Source: Psammoneis japonica (lineage: Eukaryota). From it: DNA of 64,000 bases. A program made the position numbers and the translations under genes. The stretch is taken from contig QPGO01000021.1 of assembly GCA_008632985.1 (NCBI GenBank), forward strand, positions 124,001 through 188,000. Direction: 5' to 3'. The notes under the pieces were generated by a model. It saw nothing but the letters and a program-made list of their open reading frames with translations. It searched no databases and was not told the origin of the DNA. This document shows positions 10,092-64,000 of the stretch, in pieces; the first letter of the stretch is position 1; the number at the start of each line of letters is the position of its first letter.

Positions 10092-11723
10092 CTAAACAAT
10101 TGCCATCGCGAATTGATCAAATGAGGCATCCATCAGTTTAGTCGCATCACTTTCAGCCATGACCACCTTCTTCCCATGCAAAACATTTCCGGTGAACTTC
10201 TGCTGTTTGTAATCCTTCATTAAATTTGGTGGGACGACAAACACTGCTGGATACGGTGATGTTGCGGAACGGACGGCCGAGAAATATTTGGCCGTTTGGT
10301 GGGCACCACCATTCCTGAGCGGGTGCTCTGTTGAGATTGTCATCTGCAGAGCGTAAACTTGACCATCAGTGTGAAAGTAGAAGGCATCAAACGTTGGGAA
10401 GTTGGTCGTCGTAGGCCAGAGCAATGTTGGTTGCCACCCGTTCCCGTCCGCGTTTCTCTTCCATACTTTATCCAATGGCACCGTGCTCTGGGACAATGTA
10501 TTGCATTCGACCACTTCTGGCTTGCCTAGGGGAGGAATGGAAATATTCGTGGTCTTGCCATCCTTCAAACTGATGTAAGAAAAGGTACCACCCGAGATAA
10601 ATCGCCGCACGGCGTATGCCTCAAATAATGCACCAGCGTAACCTTCGGCCCCCGAGAGAGGTTGGAGCGTCCTCCACGATGATCGCAGCTCTTCCGTTTC
10701 CAAGGTCACGAGCTTTTCTGCCACTTGCTTCTCGGCGAACCGGGACACCATCTCAAAGGAAGGGTAATCATCGTAGAGGAAGCGTCCACCCGCATCCCTT
10801 TTCGGATTCCACCTAACAAGCGAGTGAACGGCTATGCTCTCCTGACTCTTGTCCGTCATTTGTGTCGACAGCATGTTGACCAGCGATGTTGCGTTCACCA
10901 ATTCAACGGCCTCCAAGACCGTCTTTTTCGCCAAACCCTTGTTCAACATATAGCGCACAATCCCATCCATGAAAAAAGAATTCTCTTCCACGATAGTTTC
11001 GTCAACGTCCAGGATTCTTGCCAGCTGGCGTCCTTCGCTCTCGGACCACGGTGGCATATAGAGCACCACATTTCTCAAAATGGCCTGCCTGAGATTCCTC
11101 GTGTACACACTTGGAGAAGCGGCGACGATAATAATGCCGTTAAAATTCTCCAAGCTGAATGTCATGGAGCAGCCGTCCATAAAAATTGCCTCCAGCTTGG
11201 GCATGGCCTTTTGAAGACAATCCCAAATCTGGTCCAACCGTTGGTTTTCGGCAACAAGCTTTCCATCCAACCAAATTGATCCTGTGATTACGAGAGTATC
11301 CATCTTATCACTTCCCTGCTTAGCATTTTTTGTTGCGTGAAAGATGGCAGCGCTCTGCATTCCCTTTCTTCGGAGGACGGCCATGACGTAGGCCATGAAT
11401 GCTGACTTGCCTACACCTGAAGAACCACGTATTTCCACTAAGCGCGTTAGTGCCTCGCCGTCATCTACAATAGCTTTTACCTCGGAAATAACTCGATCTT
11501 TCAAGTCAAGGTAGCATTGTCGAACGTAGCCTTCCTCCTCCACGCCAAACGTGCCACCAGCCGTTTCGCTGAAAGGAAACGTCGGGTTATTGATGGCCTC
11601 CTGGAGAAACGAAATTGGCACGGCATGTTGCCTATGAAGCGGCAGGTGCAATTTACGCCTTTTGGCAGATTCATCTATCTGAGATAAAGTTTTTTGCAAC
11701 GGAGCAAAGATGTTGTCGCTCAT
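10092..11723 (-). CDS. Crinkler/RHS-like protein: P-loop NTPase plus C-terminal PD-(D/E)XK restriction-endonuclease-like domain
   Basis: Intronless 543 aa ORF. Walker A GSSGVGKS, LYMPPWSESE, GIVRY, GALFEAY and NFPTFDAF...ALQMTISTEH are typical of CRN/RHS NTPase+REase proteins. Confidence 0.75.
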   Translation of the reverse strand: MSDNIFAPLQKTLSQIDESAKRRKLHLPLHRQHAVPISFLQEAINNPTFPFSETAGGTFGVEEEGYVRQCYLDLKDRVISEVKAIVDDGEALTRLVEIRGSSGVGKSAFMAYVMAVLRRKGMQSAAIFHATKNAKQGSDKMDTLVITGSIWLDGKLVAENQRLDQIWDCLQKAMPKLEAIFMDGCSMTFSLENFNGIIIVAASPSVYTRNLRQAILRNVVLYMPPWSESEGRQLARILDVDETIVEENSFFMDGIVRYMLNKGLAKKTVLEAVELVNATSLVNMLSTQMTDKSQESIAVHSLVRWNPKRDAGGRFLYDDYPSFEMVSRFAEKQVAEKLVTLETEELRSSWRTLQPLSGAEGYAGALFEAYAVRRFISGGTFSYISLKDGKTTNISIPPLGKPEVVECNTLSQSTVPLDKVWKRNADGNGWQPTLLWPTTTNFPTFDAFYFHTDGQVYALQMTISTEHPLRNGGAHQTAKYFSAVRSATSPYPAVFVVPPNLMKDYKQQKFTGNVLHGKKVVMAESDATKLMDASFDQFAMAIV

Positions 11724-11885
11724 GATGCTGTCGTAACAACAAGTGTGAAAGGTGAAAGTGAAGATGACAACAGTGGCCGGTCTGGGTTTGTCTTCTGCTC
11801 TCTGGCTCTAGAGAGTGGAGCTGTGTAGTTGGTGTTGTTTGTTGGTTATGGTTTGGGGGCGAGACGCGAGACGGACTGCAGTGGA

Positions 11886-11969: not shown

Positions 11970-12886
11970 CACCATTTGGGGCCTGGCCCCAAACGGTGCG
12001 CCACTCTGATTGGTCTAAATAAACAGCTGTCCTTGAATAATTTTTGGCGGGAACTTAACGGCTAAATTGGTCGGGGCCTGGCCCCAAATGCTGCAAAGGT
12101 TCAAGCAACGAACGTGCTCAAGGCATTGAAAGATTTCCATGGCTGTTTACGTCGATTGTTGCACTGGTGTGTTGAGCCATCACACGCGAAAACTCAGACG
12201 AGAAAACGAGATTTTTTGCCTCCGCAACAGCGTCCAAAGATGGCAACTCGACCGCCATTTCGGCGGCCGGAGAAAATGGTGGGAAAGCTGCAACCATCAT
12301 GCAGGAATCTCAGATTTCACAATCATTTGTTGGTGGAAACAAAAAATGAAAAGGAGTGGTTGAAAGCACCGCATGGCAACAACTGTGAAACTGCCACAAG
12401 CTCGATTCTTGTTTTTGCTTGTTGACACAAAGTCAAATCTTGCGGCACCAAAATAATCAACAATCAACATGAAAGTTGCAATTTAGATTAAATTGAGCAT
12501 GGTTGTTTTGATCGTGTTGTTTTCATTCATCTCAGACAACGACAAGGTGGTCGCCGTGTCGCGAACCTGACATTGTCAATTTTCCCCGATTTGCCGTGTC
12601 ATTCACTCGTCTGTGATTGACACACCGTTGACTCGGACAGAAAACAATTGTGTGGCTAAAGTGTCAACCAAGTGGACATGCACAAATGCGTGGAGTTTAT
12701 GCTGTGAAGACCATGTCAGAACAGATGCGCAAATGGGGTCTCGCATCCTGAAACCGCCGTTGTCAATTCATCGTGGTTCCCGTTTGCAGAGCAGGCATCG
12801 TGCATGTTCAAATCATGGTCATCAAGATTCCGTCAGACAAAATGTCTGACCATTAAATTCTTGTTTGGGGGCTGGCTCCAAACAAG
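11970..12886. repeat. Three copies of the palindrome GGGGCC(T)GGCCCC bracketing about 0.9 kb; possible small non-autonomous element
   Basis: CACCATTTGGGGCC-T-GGCCCCAAACGGTG (11970-11998), GGGGCCTGGCCCC (12073-12085) and CTTGTTTGGGGGCTGGCTCCAAACAAG (12860-12886). Confidence 0.55.
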
Positions 12887-13099
12887 CAATTTCATGTGTC
12901 AAAGGGTCAAGCACCTGTGACACCCCCCCCCCCCCCCCAACAAAAAATCCGCAGAAGTGACAGTCATCGTCGCGCGCCACATTTTTGCTTTTTCTGGAAT
13001 GCTCTTCACAACAATGACCCTCGTCATTGTTGCAACTGCACAATTCATGCTTCATTGACACCTTTCCTTTTCAACAAGGGTTTGTCAAGAGCCCCTTTG

Positions 13100-15709: not shown

Positions 15710-15740
<31 letters not shown>

Positions 15741-19560: not shown

Positions 19561-21199
19561 TTGAAAGAGGAGCAAAGTCCTGCTGGTGCCAACTGGCCAC
19601 TGATCTGTGTCTTTTCATGGCTTGTTGTTTGCCATGATCTTGTTGTCAGCAGAAAAAACAAAACAAAGAACACAAACCTTCTGCACTGGCAGAAAACAGA
19701 AAAGAACACAATGAATTTTGGCAGTTGTCAAATGACAAATGCCACCATCAAACTTGAGACATTTGCATCACCTTTGTGAATTCTCTTGCCCATTGCATCA
19801 CGCCAGCACCAGTCGACCAACAAATGATCTTGTCGGTGGCAGAGAAAAAACAGCAACCATCAGCACTGGTGGAAAATGGAAAAGAACGCAACAACTGTGA
19901 GGAGTCATCAAACAAAAATGCTGCCACAAAACTCAAGGAATTTGTCTCACCTTGCACAAATGCTCTCACCCATCTTGTCATCCCAGCGTGATGGCATGAA
20001 TGAAACCAAGTGGCGCCATGGTGTGTGACACCATGGTGACTTGTGGTGTGTGTGTGTGTGTGTTGATGCAGGTTTCCCGCCACTTCAAATTTCTGTTTTG
20101 TCAGTCTGCCAAGTGACAATGAGTCACAAATGCCAAACCAGGCCTGTGGGAAGCATTGGCCACTTGTCTTTCTTTGTGGGTGTGGGTGTGTGCCGTTGCA
20201 CACAGCATTGCCTGCAGAGTGTGCACGCAACGCAGGGCCCCACCGCCGGGGCTGGCATTGTGGCCACAGGGTGGCATGGCCACCACACCGGTGACACGGA
20301 TGACCACGATGTTTTGTGGTTCGTGCCTTTTTGGGGCTGCAGCGAGGTGCACGGACACTCTTTTTTGTCCAATTTGCCGCTGAAACAGTGCATTGCACAA
20401 ACTTTCTTGTTGTTTGACATGTTTTTTCCAACACAACCATTTTGTGCGCAACTTGCAACAAATTGTGTCTGCCAAGAGCTGGATGCATTTTTTAACATGC
20501 TGCACCGGCAATGCCAATTTTACCGCAGTTTTGAGCTCTTCCGAAAAACCACACCATGCACTCGTCGCAGGGAATTTGTCGATTGTTTAGGAAGTCCCCA
20601 CAAACCCCAATGTCCTCAATGATCATTCTCAGAATGCAAATGATTTGTGTGTGCCAAACAAACCACGCTCTTCCGAATTCTGAGGGACACACTTTCAATT
20701 GCCGACATCCCGACTGACCCACGACCAACCCACTGACACACTGACTGACTGACTGACTGACACAAAAAAGTCTGCAATCACCAACCACCAAGTGGTCAAT
20801 GAAAGGATGTTGATGTTGTCAAGTGACACTGCATCACAGTTGGCTTTCGCTGACTCATGATGCAGTCAAAAAACAATTTGATTGGCTAAAAATGCATTGC
20901 ATGGGAGCTGAAGAACGACTCACTTCCCTCATCTCACCAGGTGGTTCACAAGACCTTTAGAGTCCATTCAAGCAGAAAGTGCAGACTGCAAGAAACAATG
21001 GCCAAAAGCTGTTGCTGTGGCAAAAACCGCGCTGGACCAAGCGGGTTGACCAGATCAACTGCAGCTGCACCCAACTGCCCCACAACTTGCTCCCTGCGGG
21101 TTTGTGAACGTGCACTTGTCTTGACGCTCTGTGCCCATCCATGGTTGTTGATTGCTGGGACAAGCAGGCGTGACCAAGCTCTTTGCAGGTGGCAACAAA

Positions 21200-22575
21200 A
21201 GTCGTGTGATTTTTAGGATTGAATGATTCAATGACAAGTGCGTTTGGGCAGCGGGTGAGAATGGCACACCCAACATGCCCGAGTTGCTGATCAAGGTGTT
21301 TGAATCCTTTTCTGGAACCGTGATTCATTCATTGGATGCCAGTGATCTAAAAAAGCACGTGCAGGGAAAACACATTTTGGCCATTGGTGGTTCCTGCTCT
21401 GCGGAAGATTTGGCGCCAATGGCGCCAACCAAGCTCGGCGTCAAGAGGGTTTCTGTGAGCTTCCGGGATTTCACCGAATGGGATGAAACCCTCATTTGGC
21501 CTGTGGACAAGGTGCAGTTGCACCCTGAAACCATTGCTGCTCACTCTACATGCGATGGAAGTGTGCATCTTTTCCCAGAAGTGTGCATCTTTTCCCATCA
21601 AATCTTGACTTTTTTTGCACCGGATACAAGGGGAACTACCACGCTGATGGCCCGCGCCCCCCCGCCCCCGGATCGATCGCGAACTACTCCATGTTGGATG
21701 AATCATCACTTCAACCACCATCCAAGACATCCAAGGAGGAGATGGATCAAGTGTACTTTTGTCCCTCTGACTGGAAAATGAAACACAATGTTCTGTCTGA
21801 CGATTTTGGAGATGCAGTGCCTTCAAATGAAATTTGGACTGAATGCCGGCACATGACACAGCATTTCAAACCCGGAATTTATAATGTCGGGCTCATGACA
21901 AATCCGTCCATGTTGTTTCTTTTCAATCAAGGCGCTGAGGCACCGTTGTTTGGTGTTGATGCATCCGTGTGTCAAGCTGTAGGGCACATTGTCGGGACCA
22001 AAGAAGTGCCGTCGATGAATGAAATGCCAGCATTTCTTGCGAATAATGGACGTTCCATTTTTCCGACGCTACTTGGATAAGAACTACGCAAGAGCTTATT
22101 TCAGATTGGGAGACGACCACTGGGTGAATCGGGACGAAGAGGACGACGTAGAGGCCGATCGCAACTGGGACCTTTTTGTGCATGGGATGTATCGATTTCA
22201 TTGACGATGTTGATTTGTTCACTCAACGGGGGAAACTACCCTCTTGACTTGGGATCATACGACAAAGACTTCCTGTCGGAGCGTGGAGAAAAATATTACG
22301 GTGAGTTTAACCATCGTTTTCGCCTGACAGTGAAAACAACATTAGGGCCCAAACGCTTTCTGCATTGCATATTAGCAATGATCATGGCTGACTTTGAAAA
22401 CGAGAACGAAGAGGAAGCCGAGTTGCGAACCTTTCGTAAGTTGCTCGCGTCGCAAGACGATGCGTCGCTTTTGTCATGTGTGACTCATCAAGCTTCTTTT
22501 TTTCAGGCGACCTCAAGGCTCACCAAGCAGAGCAATTTGCGTCTCTATTCACTGGTACGAAAGCAGTTCCTCTAA
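21200..22575 (+). pseudogene. Flavin-containing monooxygenase (FMO) pseudogene, partly hypermutated
   Basis: DKCVWAAGENG.PNMP, FSGTVIHS, GKHILAIGGSCSAEDLA (GGSYSAED NADPH-binding motif with Y->C), FCTGY and NPSMLF...PLFGVD. Split over several frames. Confidence 0.75.
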
Positions 22576-33401: not shown

Positions 33402-33499
33402 CTTCCTCTCTGGCTTTTTATTCAAAACTCTGCACGGGCCTTTTTGAAACCGAGATCAACAATCTTGTTTGTGTCCATGTGTAGGCAAGACTTGACCTT

Positions 33500-35950
33500 A
33501 CTTTGACAAGAGCTTCCGGGAACCGGGAACAGCGTCACCAGAATGGCGCTGACGGTGCAAGGGTTCACTCACGGTTCTCTCGCGCTGTGCTGGCCGCGTT
33601 GTTGTTCGCTCGTGTTAGTTGTTCGTCTGTGTTCGCATTCAACACGATTCAACTCGTGACTGAAGCTGCGACGGACGACCGCCTTACGACCCCTTGGATT
33701 TTTGCATGATTTCACTCAATTGTGAAACTGTCTCATTACAATTGGAACACAACCAATCTTTCATTTCATTAATGACACCACCACTACGATGAGGCACACC
33801 ACTCTTTCAAACAGCATGTTGGCATCCTGCATCAGCCTGGAAGAGAGTCCTCCTCAAAACAAGAAGCAGTTTTGGCGCAGCTGTGCCGACGAGGCGCTTG
33901 TTTGCCACGCGTGTGTCATTGGGTTGACAAGCAGTTGTGCGGTTGACAGGCCAATAATGTTCATGGATTTGTGCACTGTTTGGCCATGCTGCTTGGGGCC
34001 ATCCATCCCACCGATGCTCTTGGCTGGGGGGTCAGCTCATCCTCCCCTGTGTGCGCTGTGCTGCACCAGTTTCTTGCTTGCAGAGGTTGAGCTGGGCTGC
34101 AACAAGCATGCAAGCCAAGGAGCTCATGCCAAAAAAAACAGACACATGCTGCATTGGATTTGCATGACACAATTGTCAAAGCAAGTTGAGCCACATCCAC
34201 AGGAGCTGCTTTGCCCCTGGCCCGCACCACAAGACAACAACGTTCAAAACACATTTTTGGCATGGTGCATCTACAGCCACATCATGTGCAATTGGCAGCC
34301 CAGTGACTGTGGACATGGCAGGGACACAGTCCCCACCACCAGCATTTCTGGAACACACACTTTGCACTTAATTAAATTTGTTTTGGTTGGCCAATTTGCA
34401 GATGGGCACCAACTCATTTTCACAAAATGGTGTGCTTTGTGGCAGCACAGCTTTTTTGAAATTTGCATCACTTTCAAATGACAAGGTCCCCCCAACAACA
34501 AAAACTTGCCAAGAGGTCATGCCTGCTGCTTTGTGGTGACCACTGCCAAAAAGTGCATGATGGGGCATGCCAACAGTCAGAAGTGCTGGCTGTCTGTTTT
34601 GCACAAAGTTGCAGCCAGTTTGCTCCTCTCTGTGAGAAGAAGGGCAACATTCTTTTTTGGCAAATGTCAGCAGTTTTTCTGTTGTGGAATCTGTGCCAAA
34701 TCCAGTTGTTTGATTGGTGCTCAAAGATTGGCAGCATGTCTCAAGGGTGGAGGGTGATGCAAAAATTGAGCAAGGTCATCCCTCGGGTCATGTGTCAAAA
34801 GCTTTTTGATGGTTGCCCCCTGTGTTCTTCCATTCATCAACAGAGAACTCCACCAGACTTGCAGCTGGGTGCAGGTGCAAAAGAGAAAAAGATTGTTTGC
34901 TTGCAACATGGAAAGCCTGTCAAACAGCAGTTGATGCCAGAAAAGTGTTTTCATGTGGCGGTGCTCTTGCAGTTGATGACATCGCAAATGCAAGGCTGTG
35001 CTTTGTGCCCACTCTGTGCATCATGCTTGGGACAGACACATGACAAGCCATGGCACACTTCTTGTTTTTTGCACACAAAAACTTGAGATGCTTGGGAGCT
35101 GGAAAATTTGTGTCAATTTATGAAGGCCAACAAACAACAAAACAATGCCAGAGTGATCATGGCACAGTTGAAAAGTGCGCTGAAAGTGCTGGCCTGGGGC
35201 AAGAATGTGAAAAAGCAAGTGTGATGGCAAGATTGTGAGAGAGCTGCCATCCCTGTGGTGAGCAAAAAAGCAGTGACTCAACAAAGGAAAGCCACATGCA
35301 ACTGGCAAAAACAAGTGGCAAATGGACAAATGGCTTTTTGCCAGTCATTTTGCTTCTGATGCACTGGGCTCCTGCGAGCTCTGGTTTTAAGATGCCCAGC
35401 CTTTGTTCGGGTCTGGCTGACAGCCATGATGGTGTGGAGTGAACACTTCACAAGTGCTTGGAGGCATCAGAGAAAATTGTGTGTGCCAGCATAAGTGTTT
35501 TGTGAAAGAAAAACACTGGCTGTGGTGGTGTGCCAGCACACAAACAAACGACATCTCGCCATTTGCTGCACAAGAATGTCTCGTGGAAAGAAGAACAAAG
35601 AGGGAGTTCCACTGAAAAGCACAGATTTGGTCTGTGAGAAGCATGACAGCTGTGAACAGAAAAATGACATCACCTGAAACTGGGAGCAATGCCACCCAAT
35701 CTTCAGAAAAACAAAGCCTGGCCTTGGCAAAACCTGGAAAAGAGATCTGAGAGCTGCGGGAGCCCCAAAAACACAGGCGGGAGACAGCGGGGCATGACAC
35801 TGGCAGCTCCCATTGCAACTCTGCCCCATCCACAAGAAAGTCAGTTATTTTGTTGCTCTTTTCTGACTGTTTGCCGTTGTCTCTGCCCATTTTTACGGTG
35901 CGCGCCATCCACCAGCAGAAAGTCACTTTCAGTCGGTGTCACCATGCGTG
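33500..35950. other. TpA-depleted hypermutated domain C (unidentified decayed element) between ABCA and the subtilisin
   Basis: TA is very rare. CpG is retained at the edges and lost in the core. No credible protein recognised. Confidence 0.8.
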
Positions 35951-41317: not shown

Positions 41318-41899
41318 GGTTAGTTAGTTTTAGAGAGTAAGTCCGATTGGGATCAATGCAAATGACCGATGTGTGTTGTGATGATGAGCGACGACAGCAA
41401 CAACCTGCTGTCGGTCCATTCTGGTTGTTTCTACGGGGAATTGGTACTATTTCTACGTGGGGCGGATGTGAAGCGAAAGATCGCGCAAGAGCCAAGCCAA
41501 AAAGCTGGTATGTTTCTTCCGTAGCATTCTACGTGAAGGCAGGCATTGAACGGTTCGTGACACACAGAATTCTCAACGAGGAATTTGTACCAAGTCCCAC
41601 GTAGGGTTGGATCGAGCACACGACCTGCTTTCCACGACCAGGCAGACGCGATCGAACAGTCGGGAACAAGGAGTTCATAAATATATTAAGGAATCAATAT
41701 AACATTTTAGTCTGTCATTTTTCAACGGACACAACAAGTCTTGGTCGAACTTATATATTTATTAGATAGTGAATAAAATTAACTAAAATTTGTATATAGC
41801 CTTTATTAAATTTATCTAAGATTAACTAATTCATTTCCCGCCACTTTTGGAACTAATTCAAATTGATCAGACATGGATAATAACGAGGATTGATTATCT

Positions 41900-44800
41900 C
41901 GTTGCAATTGCATTCTGTGTGGCTTTCGCTTCTGCCCGTCCCGCTGTTCGGTTCATGTCTGCGTCCATCCAGTTCAGGTCTTCCACTGTTCCGCGGTGTG
42001 CGTTCGCCTGTTGAAGTCCCGAAGCTGCCACAATCTGTGGACTCTTCTGTTCTGTCTCATTCACTCCTGCACATTGCTCATGTCCACTCCTGGTTGCTTG
42101 TTTGTTCTGTGTCCTCTTTTTTGCCATGCCAGTGCTGCGACTGTGCTGCCTTGGGGGCTCCTGCATTCTGTGTGGCTTTTGCTTCGTGGAAGCTCTGCCT
42201 GTCCCTGCTGTGCGGCTGTCTGCATCCAGCCAGCTCAACTCCCATTGTTGTGTGCTCCTGCAAATTGCTCATGTCCACACCTGGTTGTGTGTTTTGTGTC
42301 CTCTTTTTTGCCATGCCAGCACTGCCGCTGTGCTTGGCTGCTGGCACTGCGCTCTCGTTCTCTGGGGCTGCTCTTCCAGCAACCTCTCACAGCCCAGTCT
42401 GGCTCGTCAACATTGCAGTCAACCAGTTTTCATGTTTTCCACTCTTCACATTTTTCACTCCTGCACGCAGACAAAGCATTGTCAAAAGGGTGATCATCAT
42501 CAGCAGAGTCATCATCACGAGCGCCATGCTGCAATGCCCTTCCCAATGGGGGGTCATTTTTCCAGCTGCACAGCAGCCACGTTTTTGCTCTGCCATGTGG
42601 GGCTTGTGTGCTGGCTGTGCATCATTGTCGCAGCTGTTGTCATTGTCATTTTGTCAGGGTGGGTCCACTAAAACTGCCAGATGATGCAAAAAGCAAAAAA
42701 TTGTGAACAAAATTTTGCTGCAATGACCCGACTGAACAAACAAAAATTTTGGAGCAAACGGACTTGAACAATGTCAAATGGGGCATGATCACAATTAAAA
42801 GCTGCAGGCTGAAATTGTTGTGCTTGTTGGAAAACAGCTTCAGCATGGGGAAAAAGGAGGTGACAAATGATGAAACAAAAAAGGCGCATCTGTCAGCCTG
42901 TCTGTCCTGTGATGGACAGATTGTGCGTGGATGACAACCAGACCATTTGGGCAGACAAGCAGATCTCTCTGAGATCTGCCTCTCACTTCTTTCTGCCAGC
43001 ACTCGTGTTGTCACAGTCCCAGTGCTCAGGGAGTCTATCTGTCACACCACTGTCCTCATTGACCTTCAGTGTTTTGTCAGGTTGTGGCCTTGCACTGTGC
43101 CGCTGAACTCTGCACCATGCGCTTTCTGCTTTTTGATTCATTTGTTTTGTGAGCCGATTGAGCAAGCCTCATCTTTGTTCCTGAAACAACTTTTTTCTTG
43201 CTTTCCTGGAAATTTTCACGTTTGTAGAAACATGCCAGATTTCCACGTGTGCATGACCAAAAATGTTTTCACCAAGTAAAACCATGGCGCCTCCCTGCCT
43301 TGCAAAGGCCGCTCCCACATCCATTGCCAAGATCTGTTGTGAATTCCAAGCACATGCAACAACAACACATCTCCACGCATGCTTGAACAAGATCTGCACG
43401 GATTCCACATTCAATCTGGACCCGTTCTTTGAAGATCCAGAGCATGCTCAACCCAAGAAGAATGTTGCGGACTTGCTTTGTGACTGCTTTGTCTCAATCA
43501 AGTGTTTTCACATCATCCCTGTCCTTTGGATTGATCTGCACTGTCTTCTGGATGACCAGACCATTTAGATGTGGATGAGCAGATCATCTGCCTCTCACTT
43601 CTTTCTGCTGGCACTCGTGTTGTCACAGCCCCAGTGCCAAGGGAGTCTGTCATGCTGCTGCCATGTCCTCATTGACCTTTGGTGTTCTGTCAGCATTGCA
43701 TGAACAGAGCAGGGTGGATTGGCATGTGGGGCGTCTGTGCAGAGCACACGTGGGAGGGAAGACCACTGGAAAAAATTGGGTCAATGTGTCTGTTGCGTGT
43801 GGAAGAAGACAAATTAAATCAACAGAGCATTGATTGAATTTGAGCTGGTGGCACAAGCCATGCAGGTGATGCTGGAGTTATGAGAGGTGGTGTGAGAACA
43901 ATGAGGGTCAGTCAAATTTAATTGGGGGGGGGGCACCCCTCATTTGATGAACAGAAACCTTGCGGATTGGTGCGCAACCCTCATCAAACCTGCCTCTGAT
44001 GGTGGCCATCACAAGAAGGTCATTTTGTCAGCTGCACAGCCACATTTTCACTCTGCCACATGCAGTGCTTTTGCCAGCTGTGGTGCACCGCTGTTGTTGC
44101 CATTGCCAAAGTTGTTTTGTCAGGGTCCAGTGTGACATGTGGCTGTGTGCTGCCATTGCTGTCATTTGCACACTGTCTGTGTCATTGTTGCTTCTTCCAC
44201 TGCCTGCTGCATCACTGCCAATCTTCAAACACCACCAGCCCCTTGTTGTCAGAGTTTTGCAGTGCTCAATTTGACACACCTGATCAATGACTTCTTTTTC
44301 AGCATGGGCAGTGAAGTGATTCCCAGGTGTTGGATTTGCAGCTGACTCTGCACCAGGCAGCTGAGCTGCTTGGAAAGCAACACCCACCACTTTGCACATG
44401 TGTTTCCAGCCTGACAGAAGAAAGAGGATGGCCTGGGCTCCAACAGTCTGTGGCTTCATGCTGGTGTTCTGTGTCCCTTGTGGGGGGTCTGCACCCATGG
44501 GCTGATCTCAAGTTGACAGGAGTGGCTGGGGGGTGGTGCAGCCAATTTTCATGCATGGGAGACAACACTGGAGCAAGGGGTGTGCTTCTCAAAGACCCCT
44601 CTCTTTGCTGTGAAGCAACTGTCAGTCACAAAGCTGCAATTTCAACTCTCTGCTGGGAACGCCACAGCACTGTCAATGCCATTCATCATGTCAGTCATGT
44701 CCACTCACGTTCTTTTGTTCCATCATCTGTTTTGGGCTCTCCTGCTCAATCTGGGTCAATGGGCAGGCTCTGTGACTCAGTGCATGCTGTGATTGGGGGG

Positions 44801-45450: not shown

Positions 45451-45465
45451 TTTGGCTGGCAGGCC
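45140..45465 (-). pseudogene. Small coiled-coil protein pseudogene at the edge of domain D
   Basis: PASQIASF*RMQDKIEKLQ...DARLPELL...NYEPCKARHETNQ*HLNMFREKQK. The two in-frame TGA codons are compatible with CGA->TGA, and C/H residues stand where Y is plausible. Confidence 0.5.
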
Positions 45466-53384: not shown

Positions 53385-56300
53385 AGCTACACAGGTAGAG
53401 TAATGCTATAGGAGGCAGTTTACAAAGTTGCGATAAAGTACAGGGAACTCCAGGAGCATTGAAAATGTTTTGGAGGATGCTGTGGGCTCAAAGGGACAAG
53501 AGCACAAAGCCGGTGGCGTCTGTCGACAATGCTTCCTTGATTGTTTGACAAATGCAAAGCCCAAATGTGCTGGATCAGCACAGGCAAGTCCACAAGTTCT
53601 GAAATTAGAGTGTTGCCACTCTATGAGGTGTTGGAAAGCCTTTTGCAAGCTTTGGCTGTCATGGAGAAACCACGAAAGCTCTGGAAGCTGTGGACTGCTG
53701 GTGTGGGGATGAGATCTGATGGCAATTGTGCACTGCCATGCCTCTGCAGATCTGAGAGCAAGTGAGATGGGGCCCTCTCCCCTCACTGCAGGCCAGAGCT
53801 GAAAATGAGAACAAGTCAGTTGTCTTTTCAACAAGAGCAAGCGGTGCCTTCCTGTGTGACTCCATTCCTGCAAAAGGATGAGCAGGAGTGGAAGCACAAG
53901 AGCATGAGCATCATCAGAGTCTGTGACTCACCTTGAGGGCACAACTTTGCAATCTGCGGTTTGCACTGAGGGTTTTCCCAGCTGGGCTGAAATGGCAGGA
54001 ATGATTGGGTGATGAAAGCTGTCCAACAAATGCTGCAATGACAAATCAATGGGGAGTTTGGGAACAAATTTTTGCTCCTTGCCATTTACAGGCACAACCA
54101 AGGGTTGGCACAATTGCCAGAAACTGTGGTGTCACACACTGCAGTCAACAACAGCTGCAGTTGCAGGCACTGACCAAACAATTTCAGTTGCAAATGGGGG
54201 CCAATTTGCAAAATGGACTTTGCAGCAGTTCTGTGACTGCCTCCCTCCCACACACTCCACACTTGTCTTTGCCACTCTCTGTTGCAACTCAAGAGTGCTG
54301 TGCTTTTGTTTCATCACCTCATTTGTTTTCCATTTTGCAGTTGTCCAGCAATTGCTCACACAGATTCTCTTGAGCAATGCACCATGACTCCTCTGCTTTC
54401 ACTTGATTTGTTGTTTTTGGCGAACGCTGTTTTTTCCATGTCATTTTTTCTTGCTGACTTTCCCCCATTTTGGCACACAGTTTTGCATGCAAAACTTGTC
54501 AAAAACAACAATGAAACAAAGACAGCAAAAACAACACACTGTTGCTGTGCAAGATCTGTCTCCCTGGAGTTGACTGGGGCAGACAGGAGCCCACATTGCT
54601 TTCAAGGCACACTGAGACATTCTCTGGCACAGCTCCACCCAATGTCACATTGCTGTTGGCCCTGGTTTGATGACTTGACTGTGCTTTTGTTTCTGACAAC
54701 ACAAGAAGCACAGTTGACATGGCTTGTGGTGTGCAGTGGGCATGTGGGTGGGGAATGACAGGGGGCCATCAATGAGCCAATTAGAAATCCCTTTCATCAG
54801 GCAAAGCTTGATTTGTCAAGAGTGGTCATCCTTGGCTCAAGAAATTTCTCAAGATCTGCATCCACATGGGATTTCTTGTCCTTTGCAGCCGCACTTGTTG
54901 CAAGTTACTCTCTTTTCCTGCTGCAGAGCTCAGACTGAGGTTTTGGCTTGACAGATCTCCACATTGCTTGGTTTGCAATCCCACCAACAAATTCTGCTGT
55001 GCAACAGCTCTCAACTCTGCTGGAGCCTTTCTCTTTTCAATTCAATGACTGTTTTGAAGGAGGAAGTGCACGCAGCTTGCAAGCCCCCACCCCATGGTGG
55101 AAAAAAAGAAGATGCCACATCTGGGCTCAAAGCCTGCAACTCAACACCACAAAGCTGACAACAGTTGCCTTGTGACTCCCAAATGATGAGGCAGGGGCAA
55201 AGGCTTCCTGGCTGGTGAAAGCAGCAGCAGAAACATGAGAAAGCCCAGGAAAATGCCAATGAGTTGTGGAAAGAGCTTGAGAGTCAGACATGGCAGCTGA
55301 CTTGAGTTCAAAAACAGTGACACCAGATGAGTTGGCCAAGTTTTGCATCATGAGGCATGGTGCAAGAGCATTGTGAGTGCAGTTTGTTGCAGCACAACTT
55401 CCAATGTCCTTTTTGAAAAAGCAACACAAGTTGACTCCACATGATGACAAAGACTGTCAGATGGCATTGGCATTGTTGAAAGGATTGGAAACAGTTCAAT
55501 GGAAAGTCTCTCCAATTCTCATGGTGGGCACACATGACAGTGTTTTGAGGGATGGTGCACACATGTGGCAATGAATCCCACCAGGTTGCAACAGTTGCAA
55601 CATGCAACACCATGCAACAGGGCACGACAATTTTTTTTTTTTTTGAAAAGGTCCAAGAGCCTGACCAACTGATCTGCAAGCAACCTTTCTTGCTGCTCAC
55701 ACTGCATGTCCACAACAGCTGGCAGAGAAGGAACAAGAGATGATGAAAAAATGGGTGGCTGAATCACACAGAAGCTTGCACTTTCTGCACCTGACTCTGT
55801 TGTTGAGAACTTGAGTTTGCTGGCCAGAAGCACCACCATCAAATGCACAAATCTCTTGAAGAGCTTTTCTCTCAAAGTGTGTGAGAAAACCTTGACTGCA
55901 CATGGGTTGTTTCAAAATGTCCAACAGGGAAGTGAAGACCAAATGATTGCATCCAACTGGGAAGCACAGGCCACATGTGCCAATCTTGCAAACAGCAAGG
56001 TGCAGCTGTCAAGTCAAATGATCCACATCCATCATTTGAGATGGAGGCATTGTGAAGATGCCATTGTCAGATGCACAACCAGCACTTCACTCAAAAACAT
56101 TGCACCCAGGGAGTTGAACCATGCAGGTTGGGAAAAGACTGTTGCAATTGCTGGTGGGAATGGAGCATTGTAAAATCTGCTGGAGTGGCAGGAACTGGTC
56201 TGATGGTGCAAATGCAATGATGTCTTCAGTGGTCAGAGCAATGTTGCAAGCTCGCAAGCTTGCACCCTCTCCTTGGGTGTTGAACATGGTGCAGAAAGAG

Positions 56301-57099
56301 TCTGGATTGCTTGTGCTCCATCAGACCAAGGAAAGAGTGCTGCAGCTCACTTTGCAATCCACAGAAAGCACAACTTGGCTCTGGAATGATCTCTCATGAT
56401 GATTGCCACAACCACGCAGAATTTCCCAGGGACTTTGCCAATGACTGTGCTTGAATTGTGCAGCATTGGAGCAGTGCATGTCAACAGCACTCTGTGAAGT
56501 GCCAGCAGTGTCTGAAAACAAAGAGGGGGGGGGGTGCCAAATTGAGTGCCACAGCAGTCAATGTGGTGAGGAAGAGTGTTTGCATTGCTGCTCACACAGC
56601 AACTGTGGGCTGCAGGCCAATGAAGATGCCAAAAGCTCGCAAACATGAGATTCTCAAAATGGATGCTTTCAGGGGGGAAGCTCATCCAGTTCTCATCATT
56701 GACAAGTTTCACTGCAACACTGATGAAAACGCTGTTTTTGCACAAACTTTGATTGGGCATGTTGGCCACAGAAGTGGTTGACTTCCTTGTGACACATCAC
56801 AAAAACTGGGCAACACAATTGGTTCTACATGGACAACAAGGGATGCACTGGACACAGATGTTTTGAAAAAGCCCCATGATGGAATGGCTTGCAACGGAAA
56901 GTGGAGGAGTTGTGTGGCTGAGTTTGCTCAGCCTTTGTGTGAGAAATGCAACATCAAGCTAGAAGATGTCACCCTGAACAATTCACAATTTGCCCCTGCT
57001 GGTGAGGTGCAGGAAATCACAATGGATTCACTTTTGAAGCAGCACCACAGCTGTCTTGAGATGGATGGCCATCCAGAAAAGGGTCCAAACTGGCATGCA

Positions 57100-60000
57100 T
57101 TGTTGTGAAAATTGCTGTGTTGAAACCAGTGTCCTTTTCCTGATTCCAAGTGGGCTTGAGGTCATTTTCAATGGAGTGCAGCCAGGAATCTTCTTAACAG
57201 AATGATCCAAGTGGCACGCAGTGTTCAAATTTTCTTTTCAACAAACTCACAAGAAGCACCCCTGGCAGGACCATCAGCAACAAATCACTCAGTGGTGCAA
57301 CAACTGGAGCTGGCACTCCATTTAAAATTGTGTGCAACTCAGCAGCAGATGGAGCATCCAAACCATGATTTTGTAAGACACATTAAATGCAGCTGTGGCA
57401 ATTGATGGCAACCAAGTCACTGTTCTTGTCAACATCCGCTCCACCAAATTCAGTGCACACCCAAGACCCTTGAATGAAGGTGAGTCCTCATTCTTCATCT
57501 GTGGTGACTTGCCAACATGATTGCAAGTTGCGACAGCAGTGTCCTCCAACAGGCAGGAAACCAAAGAAAAACCATTGACTTGTCACAGCATCAGAACCCT
57601 GCAACCCTTGTGAGCATCAGAGCAAGAACACTTGTCACTGTTGGTGCTGCTGGCAGTGCAAAAGAGAAGCTTGTCATCAGCCAAAATGGAGTTGACAAGT
57701 TTCTTCCATGGAATGTCAGCCTCAGGATGCTGGCCTTGGAGTGCATGTCTCAATGGCGACACACAACAGCACAGGATTTTCTTGCCAAAAAACAGCTTTC
57801 AACTTGTGATGTGCAGAGATCACCAGCGGCAACAAAGAAGAGGCAAGACAGACATGCTGATGAGTGTCACAAGCACTGCAATGCCATGACAGAAACAACA
57901 TGGCTTGCTGGCACCAAGTGCACAGAACAAGTTTTGGATTAATTTGTGAACACAAGATGAGCACACAGAGGTCAACTTGTGGACAAGGCTGGCAAAGCAG
58001 CCTGAGAACCAAACGACTCTACATTGTCCAAGACCAGTGTTCTCTGTCAGGTTTCACTGAACAACCCTGATGTGGGGTCTCTTGGCTGTTGCGCCAGGAG
58101 GGCCGCATGACTGGCAGGGACCACAAATGCCACAAGCACATGAAGCTGATAAAACTCACAGTGTTTGCCTTGTTCCCACTCTGGCCATGTGACCAGTTTC
58201 TGAAGCTTTGGATGAGCAAGATGATCAACAATTGCTCCTTCCTTCTCCTTGGCAATTGCCACAGAAGAGCTGATTGCATTGTGGTTGTGTGCACAAAAGT
58301 TGTTTGCAGGAACAGCTGGCTCCAAAAAACATCCTTGGGATGGATGAGACAGCAGCAGCCCAGCAAACATCCTTGAGAGGAATGAGCACTGAAGGGACAT
58401 GAGCATCTCTGCCACTGCATCTGGTTGAAACAACTCACTTTCTTCAGGTGCACTTGAGTTGCCAGGAGTCCAGCCAGGTGCTGCACCCTGGCAAAAAGCA
58501 ATCTGAAAAGTTGGCTTCTTGTCACAGAAGACTGACAAAGCTGATCTTCTGCATCAGGCAGTGAAAACATCTCTTGTTTTGCAATGGACACCATTGCAGG
58601 CACTCGCCATCTTGTTTTGCACAGCCTTGAGGGATGAAAGCAAGTGAGAAGCTGTGCTGCCTTTCTTGATCCACAATGCATGGATGCAATCCTGAGGCAC
58701 ACACTGCAAAAATCTAAGGCCACCACAGGTCAAATCCTTGGGGGCACACTTCATTGCACAAATGACTGTGTGCTGTGTGCAGTGTCCAGTGTGCACAAAT
58801 GGGCTGACAGAGCAGACATGAAAGCTGGTGGGCTGTCTCAGACATCTCAACAAAGTTGCAAATGTGCAACACATTCCACAAAGGAAACACATCCACAGAC
58901 ACTTCTTCATTCATGCCTTCATCAAAATGAATGTGTTTGGTTGTCTTAATTTGTTTGGTCGCAGGATCACATCAAAGAAGATTCTTCATGGCAACAGGCA
59001 AAAATCCAAGGAATGTGCACCCTCCCAAGTTCCAAGAGCCAGTCTTGAGCATTGCAGATTTGCAGGATGTCTTGTTGGTGTGCAAACCCTCACTTGGCAA
59101 CCAAATGTCTGCAGAGCACTGAAATCTTTTGCCTTTTCAGTGGCAATGGCAGCTGTGGCAGAGTCTTGGTCCTTCATTGGAGTGGCATCCTCAATCTGCA
59201 GGCAGTGAGAGAGAAGGCATGTGGTCAGAATCAAATTGTAAAAATGGCTTTAATCAACATTGCTCCAACTGCATTTTCCACCATGAGAAGTGAGCACTCC
59301 ACAGGCCCTCCACATCTGCATGGGTGCACTGGCACCAGAGGAACAGATGCAACCCTGGAAGTCTTTGCTGAAGAGCTCATGATGGCAATTTGGTGAATGT
59401 CTGTCCAAAAATTGGCAAAGCCACTTCAAAGGGCTGGCCTTGTTGCAGACACAAGCAACACCATGAAGCACAAGCAAGTGGCAATCACAAACTGCAATCT
59501 AACATGCTTTGCCATTGAAGCCAACACACAGTCAGAGAGGTGTGGCTCTCATCCTTGGCAGTCTGTCCAGCAAAAGCAAAATGAACAGCAAGACCATGGC
59601 AGGCCTGAGCAGGCATTTGAGCAGAGTGGGGTCCTGCTGGAGTCTCGGACCTGTTTGGCTTGAATGTCAGGCAAACATCACAAGAGCTGGACTTTCATGG
59701 CCAAACTTGAGAACTCCCTTGACGTGCTTGTGTGCATGACACAAACAGGGGCAACCAAGCCATTGACTCCAAAGGAAATGTTCAGCTTCAACTTTTAGAG
59801 AACCCACAGGTGTTTCATCAAGAGCATTGTCAAGAGAGAAACAAGCACCAGAGACTTGAAGGGGCAGTGGAAACAAATCAACATCAAGACAGGTGAGCAC
59901 AGTTTGGTCTCATTGAACATGGATGCAGAGTGCTGCTTCTTGTTGATGTGCTTTTCCTTGATGTCACCATCATGTTGCCATGAACATGTCAAACATGTCA

Positions 60001-60480
60001 AGATGGTCAGCAGCAAAGTCAAAGGGCAGAGGCATCAAAGCATCTGGTGTGGAAACTTTGCCATGGCAAAGAATGCCATGGTCAACCACACAGGTGAGTC
60101 ACCAGTGGTGGGGTGCCACTGTGAGCTGTGTGGGACTTCTGAATGACTTCTGAGTGCACATCTTCAGGTTGAATTCCAGATGCCCACACATGAAGCCTCA
60201 CTCATCAATCAAGGCAGTTTCAAGAGTGTGGCATGATGGAAGGTGCAAAGTTGCCACAGGCACACACAAGCAGCCAACACCATGTTGGATGGTGTCCAAG
60301 CTTTCCACAGCCACTGGCATCTTGACAGGACAAGGATTGTCTGGTCCAAAGGGAGTGCAGTCTTGTGAACAAGATTTGGGTGGTCCATGCAAGATGCCTG
60401 TGCTTTTGCATCAATCTGAGCACAATGAAGAAATTGTTGCATGGCAAAGGATGTGGTTGACAGGCACAACTGGAGTGTCC
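57100..60480 (-). mobile_element. Degenerate Ty1/copia (CoDi-like) LTR retrotransposon pol relic; gag probably upstream to about 62.5 kb
   Basis: Copia domain order on the minus strand: protease AQIDAKAQASC (~60420), pre-integrase LWSQWLGCP..HAHKHVKGV, integrase KASPLKWL, LQTFGCQV..TFLGFLP..CDP..HFDEGMN, and RT KLVTWPEWEQG, VCSSCV, HALQGQHPE and L*QVNG (RQVDD equivalent, 57571-57585). Confidence 0.85.
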
Positions 60481-61238
60481 AAAGTGTCAAATGCAGAGCA
60501 TGGGTCAGGTGCAGAATGAGTTGGTGAGATGTGGACCATGCCACAGATTCTGGGGAGTGCCACTCTGTCCATGTGTTCAAAATCAGCAAGTGCACCATTG
60601 AATGGCAGATCTTGCTTGTCTGCTGCCTGTGGCATCTTGTGTTCAGCATCTTCCCTCTGCTGATTCACACTCACAGGGTCATCATAAGCCACCAGGGTCT
60701 TGATGCCCAGGGCTTCCACTTGGGAACAATGCCAGCAAGCAAAGTGACAAGAAAGAGGCTGATCAGCAGAAGGTGACAAGTCTGCAAGACCCTCTTTCAC
60801 AGTTGCCCCAGATGTCAGTCTATTTGACACGGGAGAAAAGTTGGCAGCCTTGTGTTGACTGTGTTGAAGAAGCTGGCTGAAACAAATGGGGTGGGAGTGA
60901 GACAGCAGCTGCTGGCATTGTTGAGAATGGGACAATCTGCAAAACAGTGGTCACCTTGAGATGATGAACACAGAGGTTCTTCTGAGCTCTGTGAATTGTT
61001 TGTGATTCACATTCTTGAGGAATGCCATCAGCAGCAATTTTGCTCACAGGACTTTCAACAGCACCTTTTGCATGCTCAACAGAAGGAGATGCTTCTTCAA
61101 CTTCAGGAGGGCTTGGCAATGCTGTCAGTGGACAGGGATTCCATGATGCCACAAAGTGGTGCCAACAAAGGAGGTTTCTGCCTTTGACAACAAGCCAGAG
61201 GGCCAAGACTGTGCTGTGGATGCTCAGGAGCAGCAGTC

Positions 61239-61276
<38 letters not shown>

Positions 61277-61277
61277 C
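61239..61277. repeat. (GA)n microsatellite
   Basis: Seen directly in the sequence. Confidence 0.9.
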
Positions 61278-63153
61278 AAGGATGCCGCTGATTTCTTGAG
61301 GGGCATGGGGTGAGAGTGGTCTCAGCAAATTTTTGTGGAGGTGAGCTGATGTTGACTGTGCTTGTCCTCACATGCATCTGCTGCTTCATGATGAAGGCAT
61401 TGGGCACACTTTGCACTGCTGATGACAAAGATGTCAAGCTCACCAGGATCATCTGGAAAAGAAGAATTGCCCTTGCAATGCCACCTGCGTGCAGCTGCAT
61501 GAAATCCATGTGAGAGGGTGTGGCAGCCCAGAATTGTGAGATGATCATTTTGACATCACAGAGGGCTTCATCCAAATGGGGAGGATGTCAAATGGTGTTG
61601 TCTTGAGGGCAGAGCACACCCACCCCTGCAGTGCTGATGAACAACATCAGGGTGCTCAGAGAGTTGCTTGGGAAGATTCCAACCTTCTGAGTGTGCTGAA
61701 AAATGTTCAGCTTCATCTGAGCAAAAGGGGCACACATGCAAAGAAGGGCAAACCATCATCTGGATCATTGCCACACATGAACCCCCAACATCCTCCAGCA
61801 TCTTTTGTGAAACACCAAGTGGGGTGCACACATGTGTCACATGACACAATGTGCTGTCACAAGTCAAACAATCTTGCAGAAAGGCTTTGGCACCTCACTC
61901 AGCACAATCAACAAAGAGGGAGCCATCACTGAATGTGAGATGCTCAGGCCCATCTTGGCAATGCAAGTTGCCAGAGTTGTGGGGGACAAGAGTTGTGGGA
62001 GACAAGAGAGTTTCTCAAAACTGCCTTTCCATTTTCCTTGCACTCATGTCAGGCCAAAACATTTGCTGCAGTCCTTTGGGATTGAACACACACAGCATGG
62101 CAGATGACACTGATGACAAAGTGGAGGCCTTGGAGGGTTGAGCACTGTTCTTTCAATGCCTTGGTCATCATGCATTTAAACTCTTCATCAGAGTCTGGCA
62201 GATGAGCAATTGAAGCCTTGGCAGAGTCCTCAGGATTGTGAGACCTGTGGAAGTGTCTCACAGCAGCAAAGCACATGGAGAGGAAAGATGGCTGTCTGTG
62301 GGAAAGGGGCATCAGAAATGACATCTTGTTTGTCACAACATTGAAAAACAGGGCAAAAATGGAGACAGAAGGTCTGAACATGCATTGTCATGGCAACCTG
62401 ATCCTGTGGCACAACTTGCATCACAGCATTGCAAAGATTGGCATGGTTCAAACAAATCAAAGAGTTTTGAGGGGAACTCTCACATTCAGGAGCTTCATCC
62501 ATGATTGGTCCAACCTGCACAAGGTCATCAGCAAGCATTGCTCAAGGGACAAGGAGATCCTGCTGAATGACCTCATGATGGATGCATGCAACAGCTTCAC
62601 TCTTGAGATCTGGGGGCACAAATTCATTGACAAAGATCTTGGGAGCAGGCACCTCATCCAGACATGGGACATTCAGGTGACAGTGGGCATTGGGCAAGTG
62701 ACCATGCTGGTTGAATTAACCAGAGTCAACTTGATCTTGGTCGACCTGGTTGCGTGGGAAAAAAATCAATTTCCTGCGCAGAGCTCTGACATGCATCATA
62801 GAGTGCGATGGTCGTGCTGATCACAAATCAAGTGAGAAAAACAGCTGTGACATTGACGACGATTCATCAGAGAATCGCAGCCAACACACTCAAAAGACAT
62901 CGAAATGTGCTTGTCAAGAGGAAAGGTGACAGCACACTGCTGCTCATGACCCAACGAACTGCTGGCATCGGGACGATCTAACAACCTCAATTGGGACAAT
63001 GGTGCTCGTGCACTGGATCTGAGAGAAAGCAAGACAGAGAGATCATCGGATCTCTCCAACCCATCTACGCTGGTGTGTCTGTCAAGAGAGAGTGCACTCT
63101 CCAAGTCGGATGTCTGCCAGGATGAGATGGACATGGACAGGATTTCCCAAGGT

Positions 63154-64000
63154 TCACTCTTGGAGCACTTCTTGTGACTGCTTCAACCTTTTCTCAGGAG
63201 GCAAGAAAGGACTCTCGTCTTGGGCTGTAGTTGGAAGCGTCGAAGTTTCTGAAACTGATGATGACCAATTGATGGGATTCTGTCGGAGCAGCTCGTACGT
63301 AACACGAAGGATGTCCCGCTCCTCCACACGGGATGCGCCATTGCAGTCCTCCGTGACAAATTCATCTTCCAAAATTTCATCACCGTGTCTCTCGAAGACT
63401 GAATCGATGCACGTCAAGCAAAACTTGCGGTTCTCCCTGCACACATCAGGAGCCTTGGAAATCGCATCCACCAAGTTCATCATGTGGCTTCTCGTGTCCA
63501 CGCATCCAAACAATTTGCCACGGCCGGCTCGGTTGAGAAGGAGAGCCAACTCAATGTCGGGAACGAAGGTGCCAGTGCAGCAGTCTTGGCTTCCAAATGA
63601 CGCGTGGGAGCCATCATGTTCCAAGTGAACGTCACTGCAGAAATCTTGCATTTCAAGATGAAGTGGTGAAAAGTTCGACTTGACTGTAGAGTCGGATTTG
63701 AGCACAGCGCGAAAGGCGTTCTTTCCCTCAAATGCATTTCTGTTGCCACGAAGATCAAGAGTCTCCAAATTGTCGTTCCTCTTGAGTGATTCTGCAAGCT
63801 GACGGCAGGCTGTCTCACCCAAGCGATTGTGTGAAAGGTCAAGGACCTTGAGGGGAGAGTTTAGCTTCAATGCCTTCGTAACGGGCTTCATGGCGGCACC
63901 TTCTTCATCACAGAGCTTGAGACCGGGCAAGCGAAGCTCGACCAAAGTGCTGTTGACAGACAACATGGTGTCCAACGAATGAAGGAATCTGGCTTTCTGC
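63154..64000 (-). pseudogene. RI-like leucine-rich-repeat protein, 3' part; frame open but TpA-stripped
   Basis: LKLNSPLKVLDLSHNRLG, LKRNDNLETLDLRGN, LLLNRAGRGKL and YELLRQNP. Only one Tyr in 273 aa, with many C/H. The frame is open to the window edge. Confidence 0.7.

Follow-up and report, generated by a model that had tools for sequence, protein, structure and literature searches.

TpA depletion reaches beyond CpG depletion at a leucine-rich-repeat gene beside a decayed block in the diatom Psammoneis japonica

A leucine-rich-repeat gene beside decayed DNA

The 64,000-nucleotide stretch analyzed here (contig QPGO01000021.1 of Psammoneis japonica, assembly GCA_008632985.1, positions 124,001 to 188,000 of the forward strand; hereafter the window, with coordinates counted from its first base) is eukaryotic and consists of gene blocks that alternate with gene-free, decayed blocks. 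At its right-hand end lies part of a gene for a leucine-rich-repeat (LRR) protein, in which the dinucleotide TpA (TA) is scarce while CpG (CG) is kept, and which is the subject of this study. The other genes identified with Pfam in the gene blocks are a thioredoxin-domain gene, an ABCA-type transporter, a subtilase, a 14-3-3 gene, and two TPR genes. Base composition is near-identical in the two kinds of block, but their dinucleotides differ. In the gene blocks (27,504 bp) the observed/expected (obs/exp) ratios are 0.60 for TA, 0.99 for CG, 1.20 for CA, and 1.18 for TG; in the decayed blocks (30,904 bp) they are 0.04 (82 sites), 0.17 (304 sites), 1.83, and 1.86, respectively. By arithmetic from these ratios, the decayed blocks lack ca. 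1,190 TA and ca. 1,420 CG (ca. 2,610 in all) and carry a surplus of ca. 2,520 CA and TG, a balance that fits the turning of both TA and CG into TG or CA. The old decayed block adjacent to the LRR gene, delimited by changepoints for both dinucleotides, spans 53525..62742. Both are erased there, with TA ratios of 0.00-0.07 and CG ratios of 0.02-0.09 in 1-kb windows from 54001 to 62000.

The window contains the 3' part of the LRR gene (63154..63999, minus strand), a frame of 281 open codons followed by a TGA stop at 63154-63156, which at its other end runs off the window. Residues 1-110 of the frame (63670..63999, minus strand) form leucine-rich repeats of the ribonuclease-inhibitor-like type. 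When searched with phmmer against 1.84 billion representative proteins, the frame matched 9645 at E<=1e-3 and 71 at E<=1e-30, in multiple stretches and with a best identity of 42%. Among the 150 matches listed, the best stretches all lie within approximately residues 3-123, and a depth of at least 50 spans residues 8-111. The Pfam LRR_1 profile scored 21.1 bits against a cut-off of 20.6, and LRR_6 (17.3 against 23.4) and LRR_4 remained under their cut-offs. Tandem repeats that match LRR profiles characterize the ribonuclease-inhibitor-like LRR proteins, and the frame is predicted to encode one of these. The C-terminal tail of 171 residues (63157..63669, minus strand) is Tyr-poor and Cys/His-rich, and searches found no relative of it among longer proteins or proteins of similar length. 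A metagenome scan returned no relative of the LRR gene, and the protein-atlas clusters nearest the tail are all hypothetical proteins of diatoms, with scores of 0.75-0.86 that make them leads only.

A preliminary description of this DNA, made by reading its letters, had counted about three TA and dozens of CG from 63310 to 64000. This was borne out: the 691 bp contain 3 TA (obs/exp 0.07) and 36 CG (0.80). At the gene-block ratio of 0.60 we would expect 24.9 TA (Poisson P 4.5e-8), and at the decayed-block ratio of 0.17 we would expect 7.6 CG (P 8.9e-14 for the 36 seen). When windows of the same length were drawn from the rest of the stretch, none of 498 in gene blocks had 8 TA or fewer (the minimum was 12), and none of 525 in decayed blocks had more than 16 CG. 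The combination of few TA with normal CG is a distinct third state. It continues through 62740-63309, where 6 TA were found against 22.0 expected and 23 CG against the 5.8 expected for decayed DNA, and it includes the flank downstream of the LRR stop codon (62740..63153), which is TA-poor, largely CG-retaining, and without coding signal. CG rises sharply at 62742 (interval 62700-62753), after 1.2 kb that contain none, and TA does not recover within the window. Across the 1.26 kb past this step TA shows no gradient, with 6 sites in the first 570 bp and 3 in the last 691. The ratios for this LRR zone (62740-64000) are 0.07-0.11 for TA, 0.75-0.80 for CG, 1.37-1.41 for CA, and 1.33-1.43 for TG.

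The TA deficit is independent of codon phase. Relative to 13 control open reading frames (ORFs) of the window (6,056 codons), the LRR frame has 1, 1, and 4 TA in the three phases, where 9.7, 8.7, and 13.3 are expected. Its CG numbers 12, 11, and 20 by phase, a control-like pattern (4.16, 5.52, and 7.55 per 100 codons in the controls) with a total of 43 against ca. 48 expected. Fisher tests of TA against TG+CA gave P values of 0.0037, 0.0039, and 0.0025 by phase; those of CG against TG+CA gave 1, 0.28, and 0.46. Codon bias was ruled out as the cause, because none of the three phases is spared the TA deficit, which extends into the non-coding flank, and CG remains at the level of genes. When codon usage was scored without counting TA-containing codons, the gene's own frame was the best of six, the LRR part reaching 0.09 and the tail 0.05. 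Scores of the control ORFs were 0.065-0.084, and that of the tail exceeds the 99th percentile for decayed DNA (0.038); a host-like signal is retained over all 281 codons. Thus, with host-like codon usage, normal CG, and missing TA, the LRR frame is host-type coding sequence, and the missing TA is its only clear abnormality.

Two further features had been offered in the preliminary description as marks of this state, namely an open frame and the near-absence of Tyr. The frame is indeed open, which says little: when every two-codon context was enumerated, the change of TA to TG or CA produced no sense-to-stop event, only stop removal or TAA to TGA. (Among changes of CG to TG or CA, those in CGA alone can create a stop.) An open frame is thus to be expected whatever the age or function of the sequence, and we rejected it as evidence of recency or selection. 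With TA fully erased, the average gene here would differ at ca. 7.7 residues per 100 codons, and 68% of the outcomes are non-synonymous. Tyr occurs once in the whole frame (63154..63999) and not at all within 63310-63999. For the LRR part we rejected this scarcity as evidence as well, because the homologues are naturally Tyr-poor (1.03% of 93,925 aligned residues in 150 homologues, so that 1.05 Tyr are expected in residues 8-111, where 0 were seen). Only the tail is informative in this respect. It has 1 Tyr, 8 Cys, and 6 His, against an expectation of 5.6 Tyr and, for Cys and His together (14), of 8.8; at its codon positions 1-2 there are 1 TA (5.8 expected), 9 TG (6.7), and 13 CA (9.7). This composition fits a change of Tyr to Cys or His, yet lies within gene-to-gene scatter, and over the whole frame Cys+His is 18 against 14.4 (P 0.2). 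A comparison of synonymous with non-synonymous routes of TA loss also gave shifts within gene-to-gene scatter, from which we conclude nothing about selection.

The stretch from 44001 to 64000 was compared with independently built contigs from sequencing run X1, the one public run found to contain this DNA and possibly the assembled sample; no RNA run is listed for 60001-64000. There are 10 base differences in these 20 kb, at a word depth of ca. 62. One is TA versus CA (57384), four are CG versus TG/CA (44180, 59962, 62899, and 63337), and the rest involve neither dinucleotide. The LRR zone is covered by one X1 contig, with two of these differences (62899 and 63337, both of the CpG type) and no TA-bearing allele, contigs being prone to drop rare variants. 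The check proposed in the preliminary description, an alignment with unmutated LRR paralogues or the other haplotype, found no partner in the window, the protein collections, the metagenomes, or the X1 contigs, and no orthologue was found in them. Between 62677 and 63343 the summed X1 contig depth is 208, compared with ca. 62 in other places. A loose contig end lies at 62809, and a junction between two contigs at 62823-62847. Some short part of 62677-63343 recurs in the genome. Scans of the window with Rfam and for tRNAs gave no matches, so RNA genes do not explain this peak.

Nested boundaries and the context of surviving TA

To locate where each dinucleotide changes, each of the nine block boundaries was given two maximum-likelihood step points, one fitted to TA and one to CG. 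The TA-poor state extends farther toward the genes than the CG-poor state at nine of nine boundaries, with separate support intervals at six. At eight of them the offsets are 343, 912, 1431, 155, 89, 125, 60, and 85 bp; the ninth, that of the LRR gene, has an offset of at least 1120 bp, TA being still unrecovered at the end of the window. A map of states in 638 windows of 300 bp contains 47 that are TA-poor and CG-normal and 2 of the reverse kind. These results uphold the earlier claim that TA erosion reaches further, or occurs earlier, than CG loss: the two form separate layers, of which TA erasure is always ahead. In the 33 1-kb windows that are TA-poor, CG ratios range from 0 to 0.93 and TA ratios from 0 to 0.12 (Spearman 0.34, P 0.05).

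Most of the margins between TA and CG steps are non-coding. One TA-poor, CG-normal example (12064..12976, 912 bp, non-coding) lies upstream of the gene at 10092..11807, with changepoints at 12064 for TA (12064-12187) and 12976 for CG (12974-13058). A longer margin (20194..21625, 1431 bp), bounded by a CG changepoint at 20194 (20152-20231) and a TA changepoint at 21625 (21502-21880), has 8 TA against 55.0 expected and 48 CG, compared with 14.8 for decayed DNA or 86.2 at gene level. Here, unlike in the LRR zone, TA rises gradually and CG is intermediate. At 9183..9526 (343 bp; TA 9526, 9475-9526; CG 9183, 9022-9339) there are 2 TA against 11.8 expected, and CG is partly kept (13 sites). Short margins lie upstream of the ABCA-type transporter gene (33786..33941; TA 33786, 33786-33837; CG 33941, 33911-34063), where the state is TA-poor and CG-normal, and upstream of the 14-3-3 gene (41896..42021; TA 41896, 41896-41947; CG 42021, 42006-42063), where the changepoints are offset and the TA count by itself is non-significant. 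Of the four margins previously said to share the state of the LRR gene, three do: 12100-12850 (6 TA against 33.4 expected, 38 CG), 33500-33900 (5 against 14.4, 26 CG), and 45150-45430 (2 against 10.2, 16 CG). The remaining one (41900-42020) is so short and so low in A that it cannot be counted (0 TA against 2.1, P 0.13). CG is not fully intact in the margins; summed over eight zones it is 210 against 274.6 at the gene ratio, or ca. 76%. Part of the first margin (12549-12788) has a distant relative at 2862-3101, inside a decayed block, and where one copy has CG and the other TG or CA, the CG is kept by the margin copy at 9 sites and by the block copy at 2. At a core identity of only 57%, this pair may hint that CG was kept in the margin.

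The TA sites that survive are not a random sample. In the decayed blocks (1-9000, 13200-20000, 34100-35700, 42300-44700, and 53800-62600), survival relative to gene DNA is 0% for RTAY (no survivors, compared with 324 sites in gene DNA), 4.1% for RTAR, 5.8% for YTAY, and 23.4% for YTAR. In the margins the corresponding values are 3.5%, 17.8%, 15.2%, and 50.9%, and when a multiplicative two-strand model is derived from the two extreme classes, its prediction for the mixed ones is 13%. ATAT, GTAC, ATAC, GTAT, and ATAG are absent from decayed DNA, compared with 398 sites in gene DNA, whereas TTAA survives best (21 sites against 48). These figures fit a mutator that, on each strand, prefers the A in 5'-TA-pyrimidine. 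Because the margins share the context ranking of the old blocks, the same process appears to have acted on both, with less cumulative exposure in the margins. The ranking is a property of the margins as a group; the 9 TA of the LRR zone are too few to be ranked by themselves. The best TA sites in the margins have lost ca. 3.35 natural-log units, compared with ca. 0.3 for CG, which corresponds to a roughly tenfold difference in rate, with TA the faster.

Origin of the TA-poor state

We consider it likely that the last 843 coding bases of the LRR gene, together with ca. 410 bp downstream of it (62740-64000), were hit by the TpA-to-TpG/CpA process that acted on the neighboring 9-kb silent block, without CpG decay or before its onset. 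The change of TA to TG or CA converts A:T to G:C, and TA loss is thus no by-product of cytosine deamination, as the preliminary description had argued. Under the mechanism that we propose, one silencing domain would have two read-outs of very different speed. The first, TA loss, would most probably arise by adenine deamination at 5'-TA, preferentially where a pyrimidine follows, and would remove the best sites some ten times faster than methylated CpG decays. The second, decay of CpG to TpG or CpA, would be the mark of diatom repeat DNA that has long been methylated. Sequence that entered the domain recently, or that belongs to it part-time or at its fringe, would be stripped of TA first, and of CG only afterwards or not at all. 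The retained codon-usage signal of the LRR gene, and a TA survival above that of the old blocks, fit a recent or low-dose hit. The lag may be temporal (recent entry into a silent domain) or spatial (a mutator domain wider than its methylated core).

A process of this kind has been described in mutation-accumulation lines of Bigelowiella natans (Mettrop et al., bioRxiv 10.64898/2026.01.13.699255). In its hypermutable regions, 230 of 231 changes were A>G or T>C, and the GC-biased changes were all at TpA. Two integrated viral regions were hit, at ca. 1000 times the background rate and in only some lines; the larger region is single-copy and silent, and an ADAT2-like adenine deaminase was proposed (10.64898/2026.01.13.699255). 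The giant-virus and virophage DNA of B. natans resembles the DNA described here in its domain-limited change (a probable one here) of TpA to TpG or CpA, with low TpA and raised CpA and TpG. No C-to-T layer accompanies the change there, CpG is not mentioned in the available text, and in the LRR frame and zone CG is likewise kept (43 against ca. 48 in the frame). The differences are considerable. Our host, a diatom, belongs to a different supergroup; erasure here is near saturation (0.04 against 0.45 in the viral region); and a lagging layer of CpG decay is superimposed. The targets here are gene-free blocks, their flanks, and part of a host-type gene, with host-like codon usage and diatom protein-atlas leads (0.75-0.86). 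In addition, mutation was seen directly in B. natans, whereas here it is deduced from composition. TA in the LRR zone is low enough for TpA-specific hypermutation of the B. natans type, but CA and TG there fall below the ratio of 1.52 set for it; the adjacent decayed blocks (TA 0.04, CA 1.83, TG 1.86) agree with it in both respects, with CpG decay there also feeding CA and TG. A TpA-to-TpG/CpA mutator of the B. natans kind, acting much faster or more widely than the decay of methylated CpG, would be the best reading of the window. Among the literature matches listed there was no paper on TpA erasure in diatoms, and the B. natans preprint was the sole relevant match on TpA hypermutation.

The proposed chemistry would agree with A-to-I deaminases such as ADAT2/3 and ADAR, which favor U or T before the edited A and whose A-to-G change on either strand would give TG or CA (10.64898/2026.01.13.699255). 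Action of these enzymes on chromosomal DNA is putative, and the preference for a pyrimidine after the A that we observe is absent from the available preprint text. The CG-poor layer of the blocks has a ready counterpart in the Cyclotella cryptica methylome, where the methylated sites are chiefly CpG and fall in repeat blocks of up to 30 kb, between which lie gene-rich regions free of methylation (PMC5124317). The same kilobase-scale alternation is found here. By analogy with that diatom, CpG in the decayed blocks may carry 5-methylcytosine. CpG depletion is seen in the adjacent blocks (0.17 overall, and 0.02-0.09 at 54-62 kb) and not in the LRR zone (0.75-0.80). Diatom CpG decay leaves the TA loss unexplained, and the LRR zone and margins lack that layer wholly or partly. 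In Phaeodactylum, repressive histone marks lie on transposons and also on several hundred genes (PMC4504042), which makes a histone-guided mutator domain, wider than that of DNA methylation, a reasonable idea.

Several observations weigh against this account. The flatness of TA toward the end of the window suggests that the LRR gene sits inside a larger hit domain, rather than on a fading edge. The sharp CG step at 62742 would be expected of a chromatin boundary and equally of a join between sequences that differ in history. From 62740 to 64000 there are only ca. 33 surplus CA and TG against 57 missing TA and CG, the shifts of TG and CA within single codon phases lie within gene-to-gene scatter, and it is from composition that the direction of change at the LRR gene would have to be read. 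The X1 contigs, possibly of the source sample, show no ongoing TA change or second haplotype. Finally, no trace of a transposon origin of the decayed blocks was found within the window, where 0 of 99 ORFs of at least 110 residues in decayed and margin DNA have a Pfam domain above cut-off.

Although we regard it as unlikely, the LRR gene could have been hit as a member of a multi-copy family rather than as a neighbor of the block, by a homology-triggered process like repeat-induced point mutation (RIP), with its CG intact owing to the youth of the copy. Multiple copies are common among LRR genes, TA loss does not fade across 1.26 kb, and the extra X1 depth at 62677-63343 (208 against ca. 62), with the loose end at 62809, means that something recurs. 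However, that depth could stem from a short AG-rich stretch, the window and the protein collections contain no LRR paralogue, and the other margins are non-coding flanks. RIP itself, which in Neurospora is premeiotic and depends on duplication and RID, resembles what we see in that its dinucleotide-specific transitions are confined to silent or repeat compartments and can damage adjacent genes; in Leptosphaeria maculans it reportedly leaks into neighboring single-copy genes. It differs in that it turns CpA into TpA, which raises TpA, and in that it creates stops, which TA to TG/CA cannot do. Here TpA is down (0.04-0.11) and CpA and TpG are up, and the repeats found within the window are weak and old. 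Moreover, the hypermutated giant-virus region of B. natans is single-copy (10.64898/2026.01.13.699255).

It is improbable that a single deaminase made both layers, being efficient on the A of TpA and inefficient on the C of CpG, so that CG loss is its slow tail. The CG-poor state is strictly nested within the TA-poor state, which would suit such an enzyme, and the B. natans preprint cites ADAT2-type enzymes to which editing of A and also of C in DNA is attributed. Nevertheless, CpG methylation of diatom repeat blocks already accounts for CpG decay (PMC5124317), and in the B. natans hypermutable regions just 1 of 231 changes was other than A>G or T>C. It is very improbable that no mutation took place and that the LRR gene is poor in TA through codon choice, amino-acid composition, or foreign origin. 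The natural scarcity of Tyr in LRR domains (1.03%) and the lack of a significant rise in Cys+His over the whole frame (18 against 14.4, P 0.2) would suit this explanation; against it stand a TA level that is equally low in three codon phases and a non-coding flank and is approached in 0 of 498 gene windows, a codon usage that matches the host, and the context ranking of surviving TA that the margins as a group share with the blocks. The least credible explanation is a sequencing or assembly artefact in which TA carries a modification in silent chromatin and is wrongly called CA or TG, since the X1 contigs, possibly from the source data, reproduce the stretch at a depth of ca. 62 with 10 differences in 20 kb, even though by reasoning a symmetric modification read differently on each strand could yield a roughly even mixture of CA and TG.

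If the preferred reading, a fast TpA mutator that runs ahead of CpG decay, is correct, the silent DNA of this alga would hold two mutational clocks of very different speed. Loss of TA would mark any time spent in the silenced state, and loss of CG would mark the duration of the stay together with methylation. This would offer a way, from sequence alone, to order silencing events and to detect genes that silent chromatin has recently engulfed; in such genomes, divergence-based ages of repeats and gene copies would come out far too old. It would also mean that a TpA mutator, reported once in an unrelated alga and there on viral inserts only, can strike a host-type gene and rewrite an LRR protein without truncating it, which would be relevant to the targeting of such a defence and to its cost for the host. 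The window adds nesting at every boundary, a context ranking shared at lower dose, a host-type LRR gene in the TA-only state, and the non-truncating nature of the mutator. More speculatively, and with little likelihood, the mutator might spill from silent blocks into neighboring host receptor-type genes as a non-truncating diversifier, unable to create stops, that speeds the evolution of repeat-adjacent LRR genes, its footprint mapping repressive chromatin wider than DNA methylation. The changes would then be Tyr to Cys or His, Ile to Met or Thr, and Leu to Ser or Pro, a mirror image of RIP leakage that does not simply kill genes.

Other features of the window

The former nature of the decayed blocks left no trace in their reading frames, as six further ORFs, largely overlapping the 99 searched with Pfam, likewise gave no hint of it. 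One decayed block holds two old direct copies (13124-14548 and 15960-17347) that are 61% identical over 1.4 kb, and smaller internal repeats are found at 18979-19557 and 42064-42387. Within the block beside the LRR gene, an (AG)19 microsatellite occupies 61239-61276, and the X1 contigs break there. At its other end, the decayed state starts ca. 60-140 bp past the stop codon of a TPR gene (53384-53525), so near that the 3' untranslated region of this gene would fall in erased DNA.

The two TPR genes (48227-50491 on the minus strand and 51246-53384 on the plus strand; Pfam TPR_12/TPR_10) are large, intron-free, and arranged head to head. They are distant inverted paralogues, with 56% identity over 1.76 kb. 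A 420-residue ORF at 46084-47346 (minus strand), 9.5% of which is Cys, belongs to no Pfam family and is made of tandem units of ca. 160 bp, 70-87% alike, over 46450-47139. The ABCA-type transporter gene (25380-33455, minus strand) is split among at least five separate open frames, with introns or frame breaks between them.

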